From: a virus
Virus record (IMG/VR): IMGVR_UViG_3300027759_000063
Location: 35,594 to 99,593 of that record
Direction: 5' to 3' (one strand)
DNA: 64,000 nt
Shown here: positions 5,204-35,900 of the stretch, in pieces
How positions within the stretch are numbered: position 1 is the first letter of the stretch
Layout of the letters: the number at the start of each line of letters is the position of its first letter
The notes under the pieces: model-generated
What the model was told of the DNA's origin: nothing
Databases searched by the model: none
What the model saw: only the letters and a program-made list of their open reading frames with translations
Position numbers and translations under genes: made by a program

Positions 5204-6003
5204 TATTTCTCAGCAAGAACGGTGATGACGAGTACATTGATATGTATGCACAAGGACTTGGACTTGAGCCCACACCGTTGGAGTCATGGCGTTATGAGGA
5301 CAGCACAGAGCCACTCATGCTACGTGGCATCATGAAACACAAGATCATCAAACAGTGCTGGGCAGATAACCGACCGTTTAGATACATGGATTCAGGTTAC
5401 CTGGGTAATCGTCCCAGTTTTAAAAATCCACATGGCTGGAAGCACTGGCATAGGATTGTGCCCAACAACCTACAACATGATCAAGTGATACCACGACCCA
5501 GTGATCGATGGAATCAACTGGGACTAGAAGCGGCCAATCGCCGACGTGGCAGTGCAATACTGATTGTGGCACCAGATGAAAAGCCTTGCAAGTTTTATGA
5601 CATAGAATTAGACACCTGGCTGGCAGAAACTGTGGCCACTATCAAACAACATACTGATAGACCCATCGTCATACGTGAACGCAACAAGAGTCGTACTGAT
5701 AGAAAAATCAATCGTGTGGAACATGCACTAAATGATGTGCATGCAGTTGTGACCTTTAACAGCATAGCAGGTACTGAAGCCATATTGGCAGGTACCCCAG
5801 TATTTGCCATGGCACCATCAAACGCTGCCAGACCAGTCAGCAACACAGACTTGAGTTGCATAGACAATCCATGGTTTCCAGATCGGGATCAGGTGTTGGC
5901 CTGGGCATATCATTTGGCCTATGCGCAGTTTCACATAGACGAATTCAAGAACGGACGAGCAGAACGTATAATTAAACAAACTGAGGAGATACTGAATGGT
6001 TGA
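5200..6003 (+). CDS. KpsS/Capsule_synth-like glycosyltransferase, paralog 2
   Basis: YMDSGYLG, HTDRPIVIR, AVVTFNSIAGTEAILAGTPVF, LAYAQF..E.KNG. Confidence 0.6.
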   Translation: MIFLSKNGDDEYIDMYAQGLGLEPTPLESWRYEDSTEPLMLRGIMKHKIIKQCWADNRPFRYMDSGYLGNRPSFKNPHGWKHWHRIVPNNLQHDQVIPRPSDRWNQLGLEAANRRRGSAILIVAPDEKPCKFYDIELDTWLAETVATIKQHTDRPIVIRERNKSRTDRKINRVEHALNDVHAVVTFNSIAGTEAILAGTPVFAMAPSNAARPVSNTDLSCIDNPWFPDRDQVLAWAYHLAYAQFHIDEFKNGRAERIIKQTEEILNG

Positions 6004-6643
6004 GCATTATGGATGGAAATTCCCGGACTTTGAAACACACCTTCCGCGAATGTTGAAGAAAAGTGTGGACAAAGGTCTCTCAGCTGAATATCAAGTTGCT
6101 GTGCGACGCCGAAGTATTGAACTGTGTAAAAATCGGGACCTGGCTCTGGACATTGGCGCTAATGTGGGCTTGTGGAGTCGTGACTTTGTTGGCAGTTTTG
6201 CTCGTGTGATAGCATTTGAACCAGTGGCTGTGTTCAGAGAATGTTTAGAACACAATGTGCAAGGCACAAATTTTGAAGTTCAACCAATTGCCTTGGGCGA
6301 TCAAGACACCCAAGGCACCATGATCATCACAGAAGATAATTCTGGTCACAGTCACCTGGACCCTGCTACCATGGGCACAGGCAACGTGCAAGTTGTTCGA
6401 TTGGACACACTGAATTTTCATGATGTCAGTTATATCAAAATTGACTGCGAAGGATATGAGTATCGTATTTTGCAAGGTGCAGAACAAACCATTCGCCGTT
6501 GTAGGCCTGTGATAGTGATAGAGCAAAAACCACATGATGCCTACAGCAAACAATACGGGCAGTTTGCGGCAGTGAAACTGTTGCAAGAATGGGGCATGAT
6601 CAAACTAGATCAAGTACGTGACGACTGGATCATGGGGTGGTAA
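5996..6643 (+). CDS. FkbM-family SAM methyltransferase
   Basis: LDIGANVG, AFEP, IKIDCEGYE, RPVIVIE. Confidence 0.9.
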   Translation: MVEHYGWKFPDFETHLPRMLKKSVDKGLSAEYQVAVRRRSIELCKNRDLALDIGANVGLWSRDFVGSFARVIAFEPVAVFRECLEHNVQGTNFEVQPIALGDQDTQGTMIITEDNSGHSHLDPATMGTGNVQVVRLDTLNFHDVSYIKIDCEGYEYRILQGAEQTIRRCRPVIVIEQKPHDAYSKQYGQFAAVKLLQEWGMIKLDQVRDDWIMGW

Positions 6644-7293
6644 TGACTGCACTTGATCTAGTAGAAATTAAAGAAGGATGGTATTGGCCAAAAGATGATA
6701 CCAATACTTGGAAATTTTTATTAGAAAATTTTGATTTGCCCGGCCGAATATCCAGTTATGTTGATGACAAAAAAGTTGTGGTACAAGCTGGCGGCAACTG
6801 CGGTATGTATCCAAAACAATATTCAAAAATTTTTGATGCTGTTTATACTTTTGAACCAGACTGGCTAAATTTTTATTGTTTAGCAATGAATTGCCCTGAA
6901 GAAAATATAGTTAAATCTCAAGGATGTCTTGGTAGTGATCCTGGATTGGTCGATCTTCATATCAAATCTAAGAGTAGAGGAAAAAGTTTTATCAACGGTG
7001 ATGGTCTTTATCCAATCTATCTGATAGATAATTTGGGACTGACAGCATGTGATTTGATACACTTGGACATAGAAGGCTATGAATATTTTGCTCTTAGCGG
7101 TGCTGTGTCTACTATCAAAAAATTCCAACCAATCATAGCCATCGAAATGTGGGATCCACCTCCAAATAAATATCTAAATAGATTTGGGGACAACATCAAT
7201 CAAAAAACCAAAGACCTACTGGCATCATTGGGGTACTCACATGTTGATACACTGAACGAATCTGATTGGATATACACATGCAAACAAAAATAA
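6643..7293 (+). CDS. FkbM-family SAM methyltransferase
   Basis: VQAGGNCG, TFEP, LIHLDIEGYE; start re-called to the ATG in the TAATG overlap. Confidence 0.85.
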   Translation: MTALDLVEIKEGWYWPKDDTNTWKFLLENFDLPGRISSYVDDKKVVVQAGGNCGMYPKQYSKIFDAVYTFEPDWLNFYCLAMNCPEENIVKSQGCLGSDPGLVDLHIKSKSRGKSFINGDGLYPIYLIDNLGLTACDLIHLDIEGYEYFALSGAVSTIKKFQPIIAIEMWDPPPNKYLNRFGDNINQKTKDLLASLGYSHVDTLNESDWIYTCKQK

Positions 7294-14475: not shown

Positions 14476-15468
14476 TTACTTGGCTTGACGGCTACGGATC
14501 ATGGCCAAGATGTCCTGGGCATTTTGTCCACTGGCTGCAGGCCTGGCAACTGGTGCGGCTGCTACCGGAACATCGTCCTCGTCAAAGTCACTTGCTGGCG
14601 CAGGTGTTGTCTTGATCGTGGGCTTGGCTGCTGGTGCAGGTGTGTCCTCATCCACCGGTGCGGCTCCAGCTCCACCCGGTGTTTGAACACCAGCAGGACG
14701 GAAGTACTGACCCCAACGTTCTGTGTCGTAAGGTTGTCCATCCACGCTTGCCTCAAACATCTCTTTGATCACCTTCAACTCAACATCGCCTGGCTTCTTG
14801 GGCAGGAATGTGCTCAAGTCAAATGCGCCATGCGTGGCAACAGCGGCTTGTTCGGCTTCGGTCAATGCGGATTCTTTACGTGCCCACTTTGAAGTGCTGT
14901 AGTCAGCGTAGCCACCTTTGGATGTCTTGGTGATACGGAAGTCCAAGCCACGCAGGGTGTCTGTGGGCATTTCTTCCAGCTCAGGGTCCATCAGTGCCCC
15001 TTTGATGGTGGCAAAGATTTGTGGTCCAATGATGAAACGTCGGATGGGATTCTCTGGAGTCTTGTCTTCACTCAGGGGGTTCTCACGCACAAAGCCTTGA
15101 AAGATGTATGAACGTTTCTTCCAATACTTGCGACCCATTTCTTCAAGGCTCTTGTCCTTGAACCAGGTGCGTACTTCTGCCAAGATGGGACAGGCTTCGC
15201 CCCACATTTCCACACAAGGCACTTGCACGTACACCTGTTTGCTATCGCCTTCGCCCCGGATGCCAGCAAAAGGCAAACGAATCATTGCTCGTTCTTGCCA
15301 GAAAAATGTGTTTTTGGTATTTGCATCGGGAAGGAATCGCAGTGTTGCACTTTGTCCTTCTTCCATGTTCCAGTGAGCGTAAATGGAATTGTCTCCACCT
15401 GTTTGTCCGCCACCTTTGTTGCCTTCTGCTGCCTGTAGTCGTGCTCTGATTTCTGCTAATGATGCCAT
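14476..15468 (-). CDS. 32: Single-stranded DNA-binding protein (gp32-like)
   Basis: LRFLPD, C..CP zinc ligands, YWKKRSY, GGYADYSTSKW, acidic tail; start re-called to MASLAEIR after a TAAGGAG RBS. Confidence 0.9.
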   Translation of the reverse strand: MASLAEIRARLQAAEGNKGGGQTGGDNSIYAHWNMEEGQSATLRFLPDANTKNTFFWQERAMIRLPFAGIRGEGDSKQVYVQVPCVEMWGEACPILAEVRTWFKDKSLEEMGRKYWKKRSYIFQGFVRENPLSEDKTPENPIRRFIIGPQIFATIKGALMDPELEEMPTDTLRGLDFRITKTSKGGYADYSTSKWARKESALTEAEQAAVATHGAFDLSTFLPKKPGDVELKVIKEMFEASVDGQPYDTERWGQYFRPAGVQTPGGAGAAPVDEDTPAPAAKPTIKTTPAPASDFDEDDVPVAAAPVARPAASGQNAQDILAMIRSRQAK

Positions 15469-15486
15469 AGTTTTTCTCCTTAGTAA

Positions 15487-15534
15487 GTTGCCTATGTTAT
15501 GTTGCCTATCTAAATGTTTAGATCTTGGTTGCCT
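15487..15534 (-). repeat. Three AGGCAAC repeats plus a hairpin in the gp32 leader
   Basis: Plus-strand GTTGCCT at 15487, 15501 and 15528; ATCTAAA/TTTAGAT hairpin at 15508-15523. Confidence 0.7.
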
Positions 15535-15545
15535 GTGACTCACAA

Positions 15546-15609
15546 ACAAAAAAGCGCAAACACTGTAGTAGTATATGCGCTTTTTGTCTACGTGTCAAGT
15601 GTATTTATA
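15546..15609 (-). promoter_or_regulatory. Sigma70 promoter inside an inverted repeat, with an upstream late promoter
   Basis: TTGACA(15598-15593)-17-TATACT(15575-15570); arms AAAAAGCGCA/TGCGCTTTTT; TATAAATA at 15602-15609. Confidence 0.75.
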
Positions 15610-18600
15610 TCATCTGAGCAAAGCCAGTGATTTTATTCTTGCCAGAAGCGCATCGCCTTCTTGAATGTCCGTTTCTTTGCCTTCGTAGTATGAACCGGTC
15701 ATTGCACTGTTGCTGTTGATTGGATCATCTACGCCTTCGCCCATGCTGTAGGGCATGCCCACTGCACCACCATCTTCCTGCATCCCTGGCTGCACAGGAC
15801 GAAGTGCTTCTTTATTAACTTTAAGTGGGTCTCTAACACCGCCGCCGCCTGTTTTGGATATTCCATACCACTCTGCGCCACCAAGACCACCATCTGCAGG
15901 AAATGGTTTGGCTTCAAATTTGTTTTGATATTCGCCAGTTCCAACGGTTACATATTCGTGATCAACAGGATCATAGTATATGGTAAACTTATCATAGACC
16001 ATATAAGGTCTTAATTCTCCTGCGGCTTTTTTCTTCTTCTCTGTGCCAAATAACTTTCCAAGGAAACCTTCTTCCATGTAACATTCAGCCAAGCCGTGTT
16101 CCGGGCAGTATTCACCTTCAGCTGTCATATTGCAGGAGCCTTCACTCACAGGTTTTTGCTGTTGTTTTTGTAATTTCTGGCGGGCGTTGTATTCTTTATC
16201 TGGATCACTAAATCCTTGGTCACCTAATTTGTGCCCTGCATAAGCACCAGCAATACCGCCAGCCACAGTGCCTAGGGCAGGAACCACACTGCCCAATCCT
16301 GCACCAGCAAGTCCTCCGGCCAGGGCACCTTTCCAACCTTCGTCAAGACCGATGTCTTGGGCAAAGCGATCACTGATCCATTCATGAGGATCACCATCTC
16401 TGGCTTTCTTTGTGCCATAGGGCATGTCATCAAAGTAGTAGTCATACAGCGCATCATACAGTGCATCACTCATGTCACCGGTTTGAGTGAAGTCTTTGAC
16501 GTCACGTCGGAATGTGTCTTTGATGTGTTCCAGTGTGCTGCCTGTGGAATCTGTCAACACACTTTCTTTCACAGGTACGCCGGCGTATTTCAGCATTTCA
16601 GCCAATTCACGATCTTGCTCAAATGTACTCATGTTGTCGCCTTCTGCCACACCTTTGCCGTCACCTGCACTAGGTATCATTTTCCATTTTTTAGGATTAG
16701 CTACTGCGTTATCGTGTTGCGCTCTAACCCGTGAGTTCTCATCTTCGGGCGCTTTCCATACACCGTCCCAACCAAATGATCCCGATTGAGCTCCTGTTCT
16801 AGGGGTGCCAGACTTACTAAAGTCTTTGTTATCTTTTCTATTCTTTTTTACTGCGGCAGCAAGTTCATCACGTCCAGCTTGGTTATAAGGTCTGCTTAAC
16901 TGAGTTGTAGGAGCACCATATGCACCCTGGCGTTGCGTATGCTTCCAGTCTGGTACTACGTAGCCAGCACGAACAGCTTCATCCATTTCACCTTCTGCCA
17001 TGCCTTGTTGTATATCATGAATATTCACAGTGGTCATATCACCATTTGATGCCTTGACTGTGACAGTGTTGCCTTCTACAGAGACCACAGTCCCGTATTG
17101 AGTTTTCATGCCAGGTTTGATCTGTGAGTCACCGGAGTCTTCTGCTACCCCTTGCTGTTGTGGTCCTTTGATGGCCTGCAACAATGCTCGTGCAACCACA
17201 CGGTCTTTTTCTTTTTCTTCTTCAGGCAACTGAGCATAATTTTGTTTCATCAACTGTGCTCGTTGTTGAAGCTTGGCTTCTAGTTTGCCGGCTGCTGCCA
17301 ACTTTGCTGTGTCATCGAACTGGTCTGGATCTTGCACAAATGCTTGAGCAGTGGTGTTCCAACCTTTGTGAATAGCATCACTGATGGCTTCAATGTCTGT
17401 GACGCCTTGATCAATCATTTGTTTGGCATAGGCTGCTGACTTCAAGTTGGCTTGCCATCCAAATGTGTTGCCTGGTGCGCTACGTCCATAGCCATATGCT
17501 TTGTCCAGTGCTTCATCACTGATGGTAGCCAGTTGTTGAACACTGAGTTGGCCAGCGTTTTCTTTCACAGGGGGTGCTGTGTCTTGTGGCACATCAGCAG
17601 GTTCTGCCTCAGTGCTTTGAGGGGTTTGTACACCCAGTTCGGCCAGTCTGCGTTGCACATCTGAGTCGTCCCAAATGTTGGCACGGCCTTGACTCTTTTC
17701 AGCTAAGTCGTTAAGAATGTCAAACAGTTCATCATCGCCCACAATGTCATACAACAACTCGGTGGCATTGGTGGCATCAGGACCAACGATCAATTCTGCA
17801 CTCATGAGTTGATTGAGTTTTTCCATTTGGTCAGGAGTTTCTGGCAGGGCCCAGGTGCCTTCACTTAGATTGTTGATCCAGCTTTCAAATATTTCGGCTT
17901 CTTTCATGTTGTTTCCTTGTTGTTGTATCTTGGCCAGTGTGGGCAAGGCAGCTTCAATTCTAGCGTCCAAGGTCTGTTCCACAAACAGGTCGCGTAGATT
18001 TTCTACCAGGGCTTCGGCTTCACCAATGTGATCAGGAGCCCAGGTTTCAAAGTATGCTTGATAGCCACGTGGGCTGCCAAGATGCTTCATTGTTTCTTGT
18101 AGATTATGATAGTATTGTCTTGCGTTTTCCACCAGCTCTTGTGTGACACCTTCGTATACACGGCGGTGTTGCGCACGGTTGAATCGACTTAGCACAGCCA
18201 TTTCACGCACAATCTCTGTTATGTGGTTGCCACGTACATCGTATGGTCGACCACCTTGGCGCACATGTTCCAGCATGGCTCTACCGCCTGCTAAACTTTT
18301 GAATCCCAGTCGAAAACGTTCTTGGTCAGCTGTTTCAATAAACAAACTTTCCACATAGCGAAAACGCTTGTCCTCTTCGCCTAGCTGACGATTGTGATTG
18401 ATTACTAGTCGGGCTTGTGTCTGCTCGCCCATGTAGCTGGTCTTGCGATTGCCGTAGTAGCCTTCAAACAGGCCTTCCTTGATGGCAGCAATGCCAGCAA
18501 GTGTGTGCTTGAGTTGATTGATGTCTTTGGGGCTCCAGGTTACACCATTACTGGCCGCATGGTTGCTGAGTTGCTCTAAAAAGTTGTACCATTCTTCTTT

Positions 18601-18837
18601 GTCGTCAGGTTCCATGCCCCGGCCCAAATTGTCGCCATAAAACAACCCCAAATCGTCATCACCGATTACAACAACTGCTGTGCCGTAGTTTTTGCCTGTT
18701 TCGGCCACGTAGTCAAATTTTATAGTTTTGGCGTCGCCGGCTTCGGCAGGTTGCCCTTGCTTGTCAAAGTATTCAGGGTCAAAATTCTTTGTGACCAGGA
18801 AATCTGCTAGATCTTGAGATAATGCTTCTTTTGCCAT
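15610..18837 (-). CDS. Large mosaic acidic protein, probable internal-head polyprotein (RyR-like module, glycine zipper)
   Basis: Repeated GVAE/GMAE/VKE linkers, NYAQLPEEEKEKDR, GALAGGLAGAGLG..GGIAGAYAG; start re-called to MAKEAL after TAAATA. Confidence 0.6.
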   Translation of the reverse strand: MAKEALSQDLADFLVTKNFDPEYFDKQGQPAEAGDAKTIKFDYVAETGKNYGTAVVVIGDDDLGLFYGDNLGRGMEPDDKEEWYNFLEQLSNHAASNGVTWSPKDINQLKHTLAGIAAIKEGLFEGYYGNRKTSYMGEQTQARLVINHNRQLGEEDKRFRYVESLFIETADQERFRLGFKSLAGGRAMLEHVRQGGRPYDVRGNHITEIVREMAVLSRFNRAQHRRVYEGVTQELVENARQYYHNLQETMKHLGSPRGYQAYFETWAPDHIGEAEALVENLRDLFVEQTLDARIEAALPTLAKIQQQGNNMKEAEIFESWINNLSEGTWALPETPDQMEKLNQLMSAELIVGPDATNATELLYDIVGDDELFDILNDLAEKSQGRANIWDDSDVQRRLAELGVQTPQSTEAEPADVPQDTAPPVKENAGQLSVQQLATISDEALDKAYGYGRSAPGNTFGWQANLKSAAYAKQMIDQGVTDIEAISDAIHKGWNTTAQAFVQDPDQFDDTAKLAAAGKLEAKLQQRAQLMKQNYAQLPEEEKEKDRVVARALLQAIKGPQQQGVAEDSGDSQIKPGMKTQYGTVVSVEGNTVTVKASNGDMTTVNIHDIQQGMAEGEMDEAVRAGYVVPDWKHTQRQGAYGAPTTQLSRPYNQAGRDELAAAVKKNRKDNKDFSKSGTPRTGAQSGSFGWDGVWKAPEDENSRVRAQHDNAVANPKKWKMIPSAGDGKGVAEGDNMSTFEQDRELAEMLKYAGVPVKESVLTDSTGSTLEHIKDTFRRDVKDFTQTGDMSDALYDALYDYYFDDMPYGTKKARDGDPHEWISDRFAQDIGLDEGWKGALAGGLAGAGLGSVVPALGTVAGGIAGAYAGHKLGDQGFSDPDKEYNARQKLQKQQQKPVSEGSCNMTAEGEYCPEHGLAECYMEEGFLGKLFGTEKKKKAAGELRPYMVYDKFTIYYDPVDHEYVTVGTGEYQNKFEAKPFPADGGLGGAEWYGISKTGGGGVRDPLKVNKEALRPVQPGMQEDGGAVGMPYSMGEGVDDPINSNSAMTGSYYEGKETDIQEGDALLARIKSLALLR

Positions 18838-18844
18838 AGTGGTG

Positions 18845-18850
18845 TATTTA
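18845..18850 (-). promoter_or_regulatory. T4-like late promoter core
   Basis: TAAATA overlaps the terminase stop, 7 nt before ATG 18837. Confidence 0.6.
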
Positions 18851-20437
18851 GCGCAACATTGATATGAACGGCATTGGTTCAATGATGTTGTCGCCGTGAT
18901 CTTTCATGTGTGTGTCCAGTTCAGCATGATAAGTCTGTAACAGCATGAGCATGCGCACCACCAACAACGAACTCATCACAAGATCATCAGTTTCTCCAGG
19001 TTTGGCAGCATAACTACCGCCAGATGCAACAAAAGTTTTGAGCTCTGAGATCAAGGGTCTGCTGTGCAGTCGCATGCGCCCAGACTCCACAAGGATTTTA
19101 AACTTGTTACAGGCAGTGAGTTTGGCCTTGTTTGTGGTGTTGAATCCTTTGCGGAATCTACGTCCTGTAGTGCCTGTTACTGAGTTGTCGCTTAAAAAGT
19201 AGCCACGGATGTTTTCTTCCCCATATTCGTTTATTGAAATCAAGGCAGCTTCACCAATGGTGTTGTTTTCTACGCTGTAATAAATTTTCTTGTCATCTTT
19301 TACCACATCATATAATTCATTCACAATGTCTACCAATAGCTTGATCTGTGTGGGAATGTCTGTTTTGTTGTGGCGCCATTCAGCCACTTGCTCTGTGGTT
19401 TCTGCTTCAAACACCTGTATGGCAGCAGGATCGCCTCCGGTGCCTAGACTTGGATCCAAGGCCACAATGTATATCTTGTCTTTGGCAGGAGTTTTGTACC
19501 AACGCACTTGTCCTGTGCGGCGGTTGGGTTCTATTCCTTCCAGATCAATCAATTTGGTAGGAGCAATCAGTGTTTCATCATTGATGACGAAATCACAATC
19601 CATTTCTCTGCGGAATCGATCTTCTCCCAGTTGTGCCAGCTGCTCTGCACCCCAGGTATCGTCACGATCGGGGTGTTCACGCCAGTAACTTCTAAACGCA
19701 CGAAATCCATTGATACCTAACTTGGTGGTGTTGCCATGCTCGTCCTGCGTTTTGTTTGCTCCTTTCCACAGCAGTGCAAACTGATCTTCGTCTGAGTTGG
19801 GAGTACTTGTGATAATGGCCTTACCACCTGTGGCCAGGGTGGGTGAGATAGAAGTCCAGAACTCTCGAGCAATGGTGGGTCGCACAAACGCAAATTCGTC
19901 AGCATACAAGAGTGAAATACTCATACCCCGACCAGTTGTTTCAGTAGTGGTCTGCGCCACAATACGTGATCCGTTTTCAAATTCCAAGCTGTTCTTGTTG
20001 TAACTGGTGGCACCGGCTCTGATATGATTGGGGCACAGTTCATATGCATACCGAATACGTTGCATGATCTCTTGTGCGCCTGTGTATTTGTGTGCGGCCA
20101 CAAGGATAGTTGAGTCTGGCACAAACATTGCATACCACAGCAGGTAGCCGGCGGCCGATGTTGATTTGCCGGTTTGTCGAGGCATTAGACTTATTGAATA
20201 TCTGTAGTTGTGATAGGTTTCAATCAGTCGTTTCTGATATTCAAATGGATGATACAACATCTTGCCGCGTGTGGGGTGTTGAATCATAAAGAAGTTGTCC
20301 ATGAAGTACAAGGGACCTGTCACAGGATCTGCGCAGGCAGCAAACTCAACAAGTTCTTGTTCAGTGTAGACTTCTTTGCGGTGTGGTGCCTTGACCAGCA
20401 CCGTTTCTAGATTCTTACTTGGTGTTGGTGAAATCAT
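18848..20437 (-). CDS. 17: Terminase large subunit
   Basis: YQ adenine motif, PRQTGKST, LLYADEFAF, ITSTPN, ALDPSLGTGGD, VENN, DDLVM. Confidence 0.95.
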   Translation of the reverse strand: MISPTPSKNLETVLVKAPHRKEVYTEQELVEFAACADPVTGPLYFMDNFFMIQHPTRGKMLYHPFEYQKRLIETYHNYRYSISLMPRQTGKSTSAAGYLLWYAMFVPDSTILVAAHKYTGAQEIMQRIRYAYELCPNHIRAGATSYNKNSLEFENGSRIVAQTTTETTGRGMSISLLYADEFAFVRPTIAREFWTSISPTLATGGKAIITSTPNSDEDQFALLWKGANKTQDEHGNTTKLGINGFRAFRSYWREHPDRDDTWGAEQLAQLGEDRFRREMDCDFVINDETLIAPTKLIDLEGIEPNRRTGQVRWYKTPAKDKIYIVALDPSLGTGGDPAAIQVFEAETTEQVAEWRHNKTDIPTQIKLLVDIVNELYDVVKDDKKIYYSVENNTIGEAALISINEYGEENIRGYFLSDNSVTGTTGRRFRKGFNTTNKAKLTACNKFKILVESGRMRLHSRPLISELKTFVASGGSYAAKPGETDDLVMSSLLVVRMLMLLQTYHAELDTHMKDHGDNIIEPMPFISMLR

Positions 20438-32990: not shown

Positions 32991-35900
32991 TCACCCTGCT
33001 GTGCCGCCTGCGATTTCACCAGTGTTCTTGATACGCAATGGAATGTAGATAAACTCCACAGCCTTCACAGGCTCAATAGCAACATCCATCCACAGTTCGT
33101 TGGCGTCAATACGTGCTGGTGTGTTATTGCTTAGGTCACACACAACCAAGTAGTCATAGATGGCACGTTTGGCCACAAGGTCAATCATCAAACTGTTGGC
33201 GGTGTTGGCAATTTCATTACGAGTAATTTGATCATTGGGTTCAAACAAATACAGTTTACCAATTTCTTCTAGTCGTCCACGCAAGAAGCAAATCAGTCGA
33301 GCAACGTTGATACGGTCCAGGGCTGTTGTGGCACCTTGACGTGTTTTGTTACCAAAGTTTGTGATGCCAACACCTGGAATGAATGTGATTGGATTGATAT
33401 TGTTTGAATACAACACGTCACGCAACCCTTGTCCAATAGCAGTTTGTACAAATTCACCAGTGGTGGCTTCAATGTAACCAATAGCTGTGGCATTGTCAAT
33501 CACACCACGGCGGGTACCAGCGGGTGCCAACCATGGATAGCTCACAGCATCGCTGCGCAGGATAGTGCGCATCATCATGTGGCTTGGAGGTGCCACCACT
33601 GTGTTACCACTCAAGTCTGTGGTTTGACAGCTGGGGTAGAACACCGCAGCATAAGCACTTCCAATAGTGAGTCCGTCACCAGTTGGCAATCCAAGTCCAC
33701 CGTTGTCTGTAGCATAAGTCACAAGATCTGTGCCATTGGCAGCCAGTCGCATGGGAGTATCGCCCACAACAAACAGTGTGTTGGCACGTTCGTTGCTGAG
33801 TGCAACCATGTTTGTGGCCAACTCAGGGTATGCAGGAGCAGCAATCAAGTTGAATTGATTTTGTTCTTCTCTAGCTGCCAAGCTGGTGTCAATACCGGCT
33901 TTCATGGCCTTGACCACCAAGGCACGTTGAGCTTGGCGTCCAGCATACATACTGCCGTTGGCTTTGTTGCCACTGGTGGTTACCCAAGTAAAACTGTATT
34001 CAGGCAAGTTGGCAGTGTTTGTGGGTGCTGCAGGATTGTATGCCCCGGCATCTGGATAGTTGTTTGCAGTAAAGTAGTTGGTGGTGAATGCCTTGACATT
34101 GTATCCTGAACGACGTGTGTTGAACAGCAACATGCCTTGTGGATACAGTGCAGGATCAGGTGCATCCAGATCCAAGTAATCACTGGTCAGCAAACTTTCA
34201 ATTGTGGGTATGGTATCGCTTACTGGATTGATAGCGCCGCTTGTGCCCCAACGTGCATCTGTAAACAGTATACCATTTTGTGTGACCTGATCTGTGGTGT
34301 CAACTGCCACCCATTGTTCAGTACCGTTGACTTGTTCCCAACGATACAATTTGGGATAATTTTCCAAGTCGCTGGTGTCGACCCACAAATCGCCCAATTC
34401 CAGCGCAGATTCTGCTGTGTTGGTTTGAGTAGTGGGTGCGGTCGCCGCTATGATTGGTCCAGCAGCATTGGTCAAACTCAGATCAAAACCGCGAACATCG
34501 TTGGTGACATTCTGATAACCTTGCCAAGTGCCGTTGTCTTGAATCATGATATCCACATCACTTACTGAGCTGTAGTACCACAGGCGTCCATCTGCTGGAT
34601 TCTGATCTGGACTGGTAGCACTGGCAGTGTAGGTAAATGTTGGATCACTAACCCAATTTGACAAGTCCAAGTACCCGCCACCGTTGCTGTTGGCGCTGAC
34701 ATAAGTGGTGGCAGTTGTGAAACCAGCCGTGGTCAAAGGTGTGCCCACATTTGGCCCAACTGTGATGGTACCACCTTGTGAATGAGACAGCACAATATTA
34801 CCAGCACTGCTGACACTGGCGCTGACATAAGGAATGTTGGCCAAGCTCACTGCTGTGATAAAATCTGACACAGTACCTGTACCACCAATGGTCACAGTGT
34901 ATTGATCTCCAACTGCGGCTGTTCCTGCCTGAGTTGAGTATGCATAAAAACTGTTGCCAGGAACAAATGCAGCACCAGTTGGGGTGGTTGTTCCTGTTAC
35001 TATTGTGGCCCCCAGTACAGCTCGTTCAAAAATTTTAAATGTACTGTTGCTATTAGGAGCAGTGGTTGATATGGCAGCATTGTATTGCACATAAGTGGTG
35101 CCAACTGGAATATTTTTGCCGCCACCTGTGGGATCTAAAGCGTACAAGGCTGCTGCGTCATTGAGATAAACTCCAGATGTTTGTGACACAAAGGTATCCA
35201 ATGCGGCACTGTATACCTTGACTTTCAAACTCATGCCATCATTGGCTGAACTGAGATTTTGCCACACTGATCCTGTGGGTTCTGGAGCAGTGTCTGTGCT
35301 TCTCCAACGTGGGGCTTGATAACTGTATCCTGGGAAATAATTTGGTGCACGATATTCATCGTTGGCAATACCAAGCGCAGTCAACAAAGCTGTGCCGGCA
35401 TTGGGTCCAGGCAAAACAGAAACCACACCACCACTGGCAGTTGATCCATCATTTGTGGCCAAGGAGCTGACAAACAATGCCAAGCTGCCGCCTACATTGG
35501 CAGCAGTCACACCAGTCACAGCGGCAGTGTTAATTGCTGCTGCAAATCCAGTGACAGTGTTGTTGGGGCTGGCAGGAACTGTTACTAAAGTACCATTAAG
35601 AAATAAAGTGCTGCCAACAGTCAAACTTGCAGGGGTTGTGGTTCCGACCACTGCAGGCCATGATGTTTTCCAGGCGTCGCTGCCAAGAAACACCCAGGTA
35701 TTGCTGGAATTTTTATAATAACCTGGATTGGTCAATGCCACTGCACTCACCGCATAGTCGCCGATGCTGCCCACAGTTGACAATGGAGTATAATTGCCAC
35801 CTGCATAGTTAACTACCAAACTGGTGTCAGTAATCACAATTGGGGTAATTGTGGTAAAAGTTGCAGAAGTTTGGTTCCATTCTTGAATTCCCCACACAGA

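Follow-up and report, generated by a model that had tools for sequence, protein, structure and literature searches.

What kind of protein is encoded by a gene that directly follows the large terminase gene of a phage and strings together, in one reading frame, small modules that bear no relation to each other? Here, we address this question for P0001, a single 1075-aa open reading frame (ORF) with an ATG start, found on the minus strand at positions 15610-18837 (stop codon 15610-15612) of a 64,000-nucleotide stretch of viral DNA, hereafter the window (positions 35,594 to 99,593 of IMG/VR record IMGVR_UViG_3300027759_000063). P0001 starts at a position shared by its orthologues and is composed of a conserved 420-aa N-domain, a succession of unrelated cassettes of 49-140 aa, and a conserved C-terminal helix. 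An initial annotation of this DNA had already described an N-domain followed by unrelated modules, joined by ten linker peptides, and had inferred a swappable array; the modules are indeed mutually unrelated (best pairwise E 0.23), and all ten linker peptides are present at the places it gave. The reading that we favor, with a probability of roughly 0.6, is that P0001 is a cargo polyprotein directed to the head of an uncultured, T4-like jumbo phage from a lake, with a genome of about 350 kb.

From an evolutionary perspective, the cassettes of P0001 are swapped at the linkers. The 119 close homologues of the protein share about 90% identity over aa 1-422 and have the last ~40 residues in common, but they differ widely in size (617-1088 aa). 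Comparison of 155 non-identical proteins gave 1049 alignment breakpoints, 520 of which are no more than 5 aa away from one of eleven a-priori linker glutamates, namely those at positions 426 and 758 (PVKE), 566 (QGVAE), 615 (QGMAEG), 620 (MDE), 732 (GVAEG), 833 (LDEG), 899 (VSEG), 923 (MEEG), 1021 (MQE), and 1034 (MGEG), versus 178 ± 70 under random placement and 138 ± 49 when placed at other glutamates (0 of 5000 trials reach 520 in each control). The most used linkers are E923 (108 breakpoints), E732 (101), E426 (92), E1021 (76), E899 (69), and E833 (43), and the PVKE at E758, which lies inside a conserved core, has none. Breakpoints also cluster away from the linkers, at aa 446-450, 846-880, and 981-985, the last two being low-complexity glycine stretches. 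When proteins were segmented at the linker motif (150 proteins, six without an anchor being left out), 100 distinct architectures were recovered, with 59 accessory cassette families of at least 25 aa, 40 of which occur in at least two proteins. Insertions use four slots, located after the N-domain, after core module b, after a Cys/His knuckle, and after the tetrapeptide SMGE, and cassettes 12, 13, 36, and the glycine zipper are each present in differing slots. Colinearity of the orthologues, set beforehand as the observation that would speak against a swappable array, is thus not what the family displays: its indels and swaps map to the linkers.

The same picture holds at the DNA level, as the best match differs segment by segment along the gene among 77 related loci and as homology blocks end or start at aa 422-427, 566-567, 617, 728-732, 826-834, 896-899, 919-924, and 1016-1023. 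The ryanodine receptor (RyR)-like cassette (aa 427-566) is 87-97% identical in protein sequence to copies harbored by other genes of related phages, that is, by a family beginning MIIDELFEAPQ..CPECGG and by a 1167-aa array, and DNA homology to those genes extends from aa 423-432 to aa 555-567, from linker to linker. The pattern of cassettes being added, lost, moved, and exchanged in frame at the linkers is hence directly visible in the family; that the linker itself acts as the joint is the mechanism we infer.

Related phages encode at least two further families of array genes with the same G[VM]AE linkers. The members of one (L038, L039, L041, and L061 among our related loci; ~5400-7000 of each) start with MIIDELFE↓A..CPECGG, the arrow marking a predicted cut here and below, and have ..MVARVKKLAGLG near their end, and the other is represented by the 1167-aa chain (L052:3145-6648), which starts with MILDEFF. 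A 72-aa protein encoded after the portal gene (L081:3608-3826) starts with MLLNEFF, a leader similar to MILDEFF.

Where cassettes are joined, the protein also carries what may be a recognition signal. According to passages of PMC5694885 and PMC9026906, the proteases of T4, phiKZ, and SPN3US recognize a short x-X-E motif and cut behind its Glu, and propeptides often contain several cut sites. A typical linker reads (G/P)-(V/M/L/I)-x-E followed by G, D, N, or S, in line with the proposal that the linkers fit the rule of T4-type prohead proteases, with Glu at P1 (the residue before the cut) and a hydrophobic residue at P3. In residues 421-1075 of P0001, G[VM]AE occurs 3 times versus 0.05 expected and hydrophobic-x-Glu (hxE) followed by a small residue 12 times versus 2.9 expected (0 of 2000 shuffles reach either count), and no other ORF of at least 60 aa, in any frame of the 99.6-kb contig to which the window belongs, contains more than one strict motif. 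Beyond P0001, the extensions of 120 representatives (50% identity clusters) contain G[VM]AE 78 times versus 2.7 expected, a 29-fold excess, and G-hydrophobic-x-Glu-small 164 times versus 26, when control motifs (Asp or Gln versions and the reversed motif) show no enrichment in the same extensions. Across 474 distinct junctions, P4 is Gly in 186 and Pro in 116 (302 together), and [VMLI]-x-E is found at all 11 a-priori linkers and at 474/474 segmented junctions, a junction figure that is partly circular because the same motif was used for segmenting. The glutamates at 732, 758, 833, 899, and 918 are nearly invariant, and linkers with quite different DNA and residues (VKE, LDE, VSE, MEE, MQE, MGE, and IQE) all keep the hydrophobic P3 and the Glu at P1.

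Close relatives encode a protease that could act on such sites. Indeed, a Peptidase_S77 domain (PF03420, T4 gp21-type) is detected in the related contigs G001 (a 212-aa protein, E 3e-25) and G002 (E 5.5e-25), the former being the contig that holds the orthologue at locus L014, with a 90% match in its best segment. The gene order around this protease is portal, small protein, acidic protein, protease, gp22-like scaffold, and capsid protein. The capsid proteins themselves exhibit the rule: L-x-E↓N/S/T/A, some 19 aa ahead of VILPVIRRV, is present in each of the 43 distinct pre-sequences listed from 80 related loci, phages 121Q, Ettore, and Atu_ph07 have the same site, and it parallels the LTE↓AEIGG of T4 gp23. 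On the basis of these motifs, the linkers of P0001 would be prohead-protease cut sites. Between portal and protease, the very acidic protein of 275-285 aa (L081:3936-4763, L082:8752-9609) carries ..P-MAE↓A or ..GMME↓A before its basic C-terminal part, and is likely a further substrate of the protease in the head core.

How could such a protein reach the head? A first candidate signal is the C-terminal amphipathic helix GDALLARIKSLALLR (aa 1061-1075; 15613-15657, minus strand, as are all features of P0001 below), in which L1065 to A1072 is invariant in 101 sequences. Among the 149 family C-termini listed, which include short forms of 474-506 aa, most end in h-x-R/K-h-K-x-L-A/S-G/L-h, where h is hydrophobic, such as ..ARIKSLALLR, ..DRLKELSGM, ..RIKFLAGIT, and ..QLKRLAGLK. 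That even the short forms have this amphipathic end suggests that the terminal helix came first and that cassettes later entered between it and the N-domain. This end resembles that of the gp22-like scaffold, whose C-termini listed from the 80 related loci all terminate in ..N[VLIM]..[KR][KR]LAG[LI], and whose counterparts elsewhere end in ..LKRLAGIKK (Atu_ph07) or ..LRRLAGIK (Ettore). With a 9-mer matrix of scaffold ends and internal windows as the reference, 72 of 141 family C-termini lie beyond the 95th percentile, and 30 of the 141 beyond the 99th; this matrix, built with heavier pseudocounts, replaced an 11-mer matrix judged too narrow, in which 8/141 family C-termini reach a score of at least 8, versus 0/2820 internal windows and 0/255 other ORF ends. 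A candidate cut lies just before the helix in both proteins, at VSE↓D.. in the scaffold and at IQE↓G.. in P0001.

A second candidate signal is found on cassettes that are encoded alone. A search with the RyR-like cassette, cassette 17, retrieved 464 proteins of 77-245 aa, and 54 of the 57 stand-alone forms of up to 165 aa have a leader ending in [LIVM]xE (e.g., MTTELFRKYIDIINE↓S) that looks like the capsid-targeting sequence (CTS) of T4, the leader of IPII and IPIII being MKTYQEFIAE↓A in the T4 record. One such stand-alone gene, L177, is located on the same 303-kb contig as L138, a capsid-protein locus of the clade. Mini-arrays also exist, in which MKITDIITE↓N..VQE↓G..QGIRE↓G precedes the RyR-like cassette. 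Considered together with the virion annotations of N-domain homologues described below, linkers, helix, and leaders suggest that P0001 may be packaged in the head and cut there.

With regard to this hypothesis, the DNA of the linkers deserves attention, for it could tell a different story. The initial annotation had noted that the linkers are similar at the DNA level, and its three DNA strings, at 16640, 16991, and 17139, are confirmed and encode G-V/M-A-E-G. Its description of the linkers as DNA micro-repeats holds in part. The three G[VM]AE linkers of the window have only 7-8 identical bases in common, GCAGAAG(G), and their longest pair (16637-16655 versus 16988-17006; 19 nt, 84%) is not exceptional by itself, since the gene contains 31 such short repeats of about this quality in all. 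Across 43 distinct linker contexts, however, the Ala codon is GCG in 21 of 43 versus a background of 6% (p 6e-15), Glu is GAA in 42 of 43, Val is GTG in 17 of 19 versus 39%, and the preceding Gly is never GGA or GGG. A DNA-level signal is therefore present at the linkers, though the DNA sequence is not fixed. This codon bias (Ala GCG, Val GTG, Gly -1) is what speaks for a view of the linker as only a recombination joint and flexible hinge, with P0001 remaining uncut as a large virion protein of the beads-on-a-string kind, perhaps displayed on the particle, and so do the ends of the DNA homology blocks at linkers, a LysM stretch in one relative, and the similarity of glycine zippers to tail proteins. 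Yet linkers that differ markedly in DNA and residues still keep a hydrophobic P3 and Glu at P1, the same rule applies at the maturation site of the clade's capsid protein, the Asp, Gln, and reversed motifs are not enriched, stand-alone cassettes bear a CTS-like leader predicted to be cleavable, and the C-terminus is similar to that of an internal scaffold. We consequently regard an uncut protein as unlikely.

The cassettes are under purifying selection, with dN/dS ratios (nonsynonymous to synonymous substitution rates) of 0.12 for cassette 17 and 0.17 for cassette 12, close to the values of the conserved core module a+b (0.11) and of the N-domain (0.10). This bears on another alternative, according to which the array would be a sacrificial accessory of the core or scaffold that undergoes packaging and cutting as gp22 does, with its fragments expelled at maturation and no role after injection. 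The C-terminal motif common to P0001 and the scaffold, the abundance of hxE sites in the scaffold of the clade, and the lack of known enzymatic domains in the cassettes are all compatible with such a fate. Purifying selection on cassettes argues against it, however, as does a diversity of presence, absence, and swapping (100 architectures in 150 proteins) that mere filler would not need; moreover, homologues of the N-domain are in virions according to record annotations, and the stand-alone forms resemble the T4 internal proteins, which passages of PMC9026906 describe as retained and injected. A discarded filler is, in our judgment, about as improbable as an uncut virion protein.

The N-domain (aa 1-421; 17575-18837) is the counterpart of stand-alone virion structural proteins in cultured jumbo phages. 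It matches PHROG 13484, "virion structural protein" (E 7e-10), and a tblastn search of the whole protein against 50,697 phage records gave matches limited to aa 117-321, in 27 records, so that, at E ≤ 1e-5, cultured phages yielded no cassette. The matched genomes are those of jumbo phages such as PA5oct, Serratia phage BF, and Yersinia, Erwinia, and Vibrio phages, and for PA5oct, BF, and the Yersinia and Erwinia phages, the records call the homologue a virion or structural protein. That of PA5oct, gp278, bears a record note of electrospray ionization tandem mass spectrometry (ESI-MS/MS), and the passages searched in the main text of the PA5oct paper make no mention of it; in Serratia phage BF, gp274 is a stand-alone 429-aa N-domain homologue annotated as a virion structural protein. 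More broadly, the N-domain alone retrieves proteins of about 400-1442 aa, with 1708 representatives at the 50% identity level, 513 of them at E ≤ 1e-30.

Structural comparisons gave the N-domain no clear solved fold. Its AF2 model (predicted local distance difference test score, pLDDT, of 83.6) has no Foldseek match in the PDB at E ≤ 0.001 (best E 0.077), VIA-align against 48,161 chains gave a best Z of 6.8, which is within noise, and BFVD returned uncharacterised phage proteins only, one of them named "Large polyvalent protein-associated domain-containing". In the ESM Atlas, aa 1-420 and aa 733-923 hit only unnamed viral clusters (score 0.75). Fifty diverse homologues have E125, H148, H191, G195, G196, P198, D200, and R221 invariant and H205, E168, and E173 nearly so; these residues may form a metal or catalytic site in a fold without a solved relative. 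A portal identity was rejected because no portal family matched, and the portal of the clade is a separate 595-aa gene. The position beside the large terminase gene is analogous to that of a MuF or SPP1 gp7-type carrier, and MuF (PF04233) gave no Pfam match at E up to 1.

The genomic setting raises the question of whether P0001 belongs to the virion at all. The window forms the last part of a 99.6-kb IMG/VR fragment (CheckV completeness 29%) that stops inside a capsid-protein gene and that also encodes a 1110-aa tail sheath, tube, neck, and gp23-like capsid genes. Orthologues of P0001 are found on contigs of 347-364 kb, and given this T4-like gene set, the source is therefore a T4-like jumbo phage of ~350 kb. 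On the 3' side, P0001 is followed by genes for a gp32-like single-stranded DNA-binding protein (SSB), UvsX, and UvsY, and the order of the large terminase (TerL), N-domain protein, SSB, and UvsX (recombinase) is the same in Serratia phage BF. The T4 late-promoter-like TATAAATA lies at 15602-15609 on the minus strand, directly past the P0001 stop and upstream of the gp32-like SSB gene, and has 4 copies in the window versus 1.0 expected (2 of 100 shuffles reach 4); none is located upstream of P0001 within the window. An Rfam search of 15000-19500 gave no match. The replication and recombination genes downstream and this lack of an upstream TATAAATA would be consistent with a non-virion, cytoplasmic multi-domain protein that merely happens to be placed between TerL and recombination genes. 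The PHROG match, the virion or structural annotations of the PA5oct, BF, Yersinia, and Erwinia homologues, with the ESI-MS/MS note on that of PA5oct, and a start codon located only 10 nt past the stop of TerL (18848-20437) nevertheless point in the other direction, and make a cytoplasmic protein very improbable.

The individual segments of P0001 further illustrate how the array is organized. Linker 1, APPVKE↓N (aa 422-426; 17560-17574), is the main insertion hotspot after the N-domain, with 92 breakpoints within 5 aa and 49 ends of DNA high-scoring segment pairs at aa 422-427. Behind it stands cassette 17, weakly RyR-like (aa 427-561; 17155-17559), also present in other array genes and in stand-alone proteins of ~147 aa, and then the linker QQGVAE↓D (aa 562-566; 17140-17154), which contains the DNA string at 17139. 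Cassette 12, a small SH3/KOW-like beta module found in several slots and neighbour contexts (aa 567-610; 17008-17139), is followed by the double linker QGMAE↓GEMDE↓A (aa 611-620; 16978-17007), containing the string at 16991, and by cassette 35 (aa 621-727; 16657-16977), which matches no family and occurs in 3/150 orthologues. The linker KGVAE↓G (aa 728-732; 16642-16656), with the string at 16640, the nearly invariant E732, and 101 breakpoints within 5 aa, leads to the conserved core module a+b (aa 733-833; 16339-16641), which ends in GLDE↓G and whose internal PVKE is never a breakpoint. Downstream are the glycine-zipper module (aa 834-899; 16141-16338), ending in PVSE↓G and occupying a variable slot with alternative versions, the Cys/His knuckle GSCNMT..CPEHGLAEC (aa 900-923; 16069-16140), ending in YMEE↓G, and cassette 29 (aa 924-1021; 15775-16068), AT-richer, ending in GMQE↓D, and present in 4/150 orthologues. 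The conserved tail (aa 1022-1060; 15658-15774), DGGAVGMPYSMGE↓G..DDPINSNSAMTGSYYEGKETDIQE↓G, offers a further insertion slot after SMGE and connects to the terminal helix.

Of the labels that the initial annotation had given to these modules, the Cys/His cluster proved solid, with C902, C911, H914, and C919 nearly invariant in 101 sequences, and the RyR, small beta-barrel, and glycine-zipper labels are weaker than it implied, all of them below Pfam cut-offs in P0001. Cassette 17 scores 12.4 bits against RyR PF02026 (E 0.19, cut-off 27.4) and is only weakly similar to RyR chains of the PDB (E 0.09-2, 19 residues, confined to LPEEEKEKDR), cassette 12 scores 20.9 bits against its SH3/KOW-like family (cut-off 28.9), and the isolated glycine zipper 22.3 bits against PF13488 (cut-off 25), a score that rises to 31.4 and 26.4 bits in the relatives P0163 and P0178. 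Indeed, Pfam gave sub-threshold matches only for eight pieces of P0001, and PHROGs matched the Gly-zipper alone among seven pieces, glycine zippers being similar to tail proteins. In G001, a large tape-measure- or lysin-like protein encoded before the portal gene (L081:2-1795) has KKVAE↓G followed by a glycine zipper like that of P0001, so that tail proteins, too, may make use of the linker and zipper.

Base composition likewise bears out the initial annotation in part, since two modules had been called AT-richer. The cassette at 15775-16068 is so (GC 0.432, GC at third codon positions, GC3, 0.306), and the one at 16642-16977 has an ordinary GC of 0.476 and is low only in GC3 (0.312), the GC3 of the N-domain being 0.453. 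Over 15775-17559, accessory cassettes have a GC3 of 0.31-0.39 versus 0.45-0.48 in the N-domain and core modules, which hints that cassettes circulate in a pool of different base composition.

Several observations weigh against a head-targeted, cut cargo polyprotein. The hxE tripeptide is also frequent in the helical N-domain, so that the bare tripeptide is unspecific and only the extended motif is specific; the strict site is absent from the extension of 14/117 long representatives; and P3 is mostly V or M at linkers, as opposed to L at the site in the capsid protein of the clade. The 99.6-kb contig itself, which ends inside the capsid-protein gene and is ~29% complete, carries no protease gene, so that the protease was detected in relatives only. 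T4 gp22 is without the C-terminal motif, the score of the P0001 C-terminus (7.71) is exceeded by 40/2820 internal windows and by 1/255 other ORF ends, and the likeness of helix and scaffold, although real, is moderate, with family C-termini that are not mutually independent. A search of proteins of 61-195 aa revealed no stand-alone form of cassette 35, and an N-terminal CTS-like leader of the M[ILV][ILV][DNQE]E[FL][FWL] type is absent from P0001 and its contig. Finally, no effector domain is recognisable in the cassettes, as 56 of 59 family representatives have no Pfam match, two have a Gly-zipper and one a LysM, and no enzyme is detected.

In spite of these points, the exchange of cassettes and the presence of Glu-ended linkers fitting the head-protease rule make it probable that P0001 loads a changeable set of mini-proteins into the capsid. 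In the model that we propose, the carrier would consist of the ~420-aa N-domain and the conserved C-terminal amphipathic helix, between which cassettes would have been inserted during evolution, each being bounded by a short exposed linker matching the rule of T4-type (S77, gp21-like) proteases. P0001 would first co-assemble into the prohead, perhaps directed by its scaffold-like helix; the activated protease would then cut after each linker Glu, thereby also detaching the targeting helix (at IQE↓G); besides the N-domain, some eight proteins of only 5-15 kDa would be set free; and these would be retained in the head, in the manner of T4 internal proteins, to pass into the cell along with the DNA. 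In the pattern visible in the family, cassettes move from one array to another, among array genes of different kinds, and between these and stand-alone genes bearing a CTS-like N-terminal leader. A more ambitious version, to which we give slightly less than even odds, is that of a combinatorial cargo system in which one and the same linker would be both protease cut site and in-frame recombination joint, and in which cassettes would circulate among CTS-led stand-alone genes, mini-arrays, and long arrays loaded by a scaffold-derived C-terminal signal. If so, a single gene could deliver a strain-specific cocktail of injected mini-proteins.

If the cargo model were true, the T4 internal-protein paradigm would no longer be limited to single genes but would also cover polyproteins that are reshuffled at a defined joint, and a reading rule would become available for hundreds of uncharacterised proteins of environmental giant phages. 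The 59 accessory families of this one orthologue set would then represent a large pool of small unknown proteins that are candidates for early host takeover or counter-defence. From a practical standpoint, the T4 CTS has already been used to load foreign proteins into phage heads; two short candidate capsid-loading signals, the CTS-like leader and the scaffold-like helix, together with one protease linker, could likewise serve this end.

Full-text literature searches found no description of cassette polyproteins with prohead-protease linkers, and we class P0001 as a previously undescribed variant of the T4 internal-protein/CTS system. It nonetheless has points in common with several other systems. 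Like the polyvalent proteins (Iyer et al. 2017, PMC5512222), P0001 is large and multi-domain, predicted to travel with the DNA, and to have its domains freed by proteolysis, and one BFVD relative of its N-domain bears their name; the polyvalent proteins, however, contain recognisable conflict enzymes and usually an embedded peptidase, none of which Pfam detected here, where cutting would occur in trans by the prohead protease. The linkers also recall the PeSLs of T4-type genomes, which passages of Arbiol et al. (2010, PMC2839356) describe as short conserved DNA flanking accessory units and acting as preferred recombination sites, but PeSLs are intergenic promoter-terminator cassettes of ~100 bp, whereas the joints of P0001 are coding, in frame, ~12-15 nt long, and only partially conserved in DNA. 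The gp22-like scaffold of Rak2/121Q/PA5oct/Atu_ph07-type jumbo phages shares the amphipathic ..(K/R)(K/R)LAG(L/I) end and many hxE sites, and differs in being a conserved coiled coil without exchangeable cassettes and with no other sequence similarity to P0001.

With regard to giant phages, passages of PMC5694885, together with the abstracts of PMC7411985 and PMC10052503, report multiple cuts after Glu, by a gp21-related protease, in head, inner-body, and ejection proteins of phiKZ, 201phi2-1, and SPN3US, many of which are ejected into the cell. Their motif is S/A/G-x-E, though, they lose propeptides rather than carrying chains of unrelated exchangeable cassettes, and no sequence relation to them was found, as tblastn against phages matched only aa 117-321 of P0001, in the jumbo phages named above. 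The closest parallel is with T4 IPI, IPII, IPIII, and Alt, which rely on a CTS and gp21 processing (passages of PMC9026906): the putative cargo is here also small, diverse, and non-essential-looking, the clade has an S77 protease, the predicted cut, as judged from sequence only, follows the Glu of hydrophobic-x-E, and the leader of stand-alone cassette 17 resembles MKTYQEFIAE↓A. Unlike in T4, however, many putative cargos are fused in one frame behind a 420-aa carrier, the candidate signal is a scaffold-like C-terminal helix instead of an N-terminal CTS, and the linker doubles as the point at which cassettes are exchanged.

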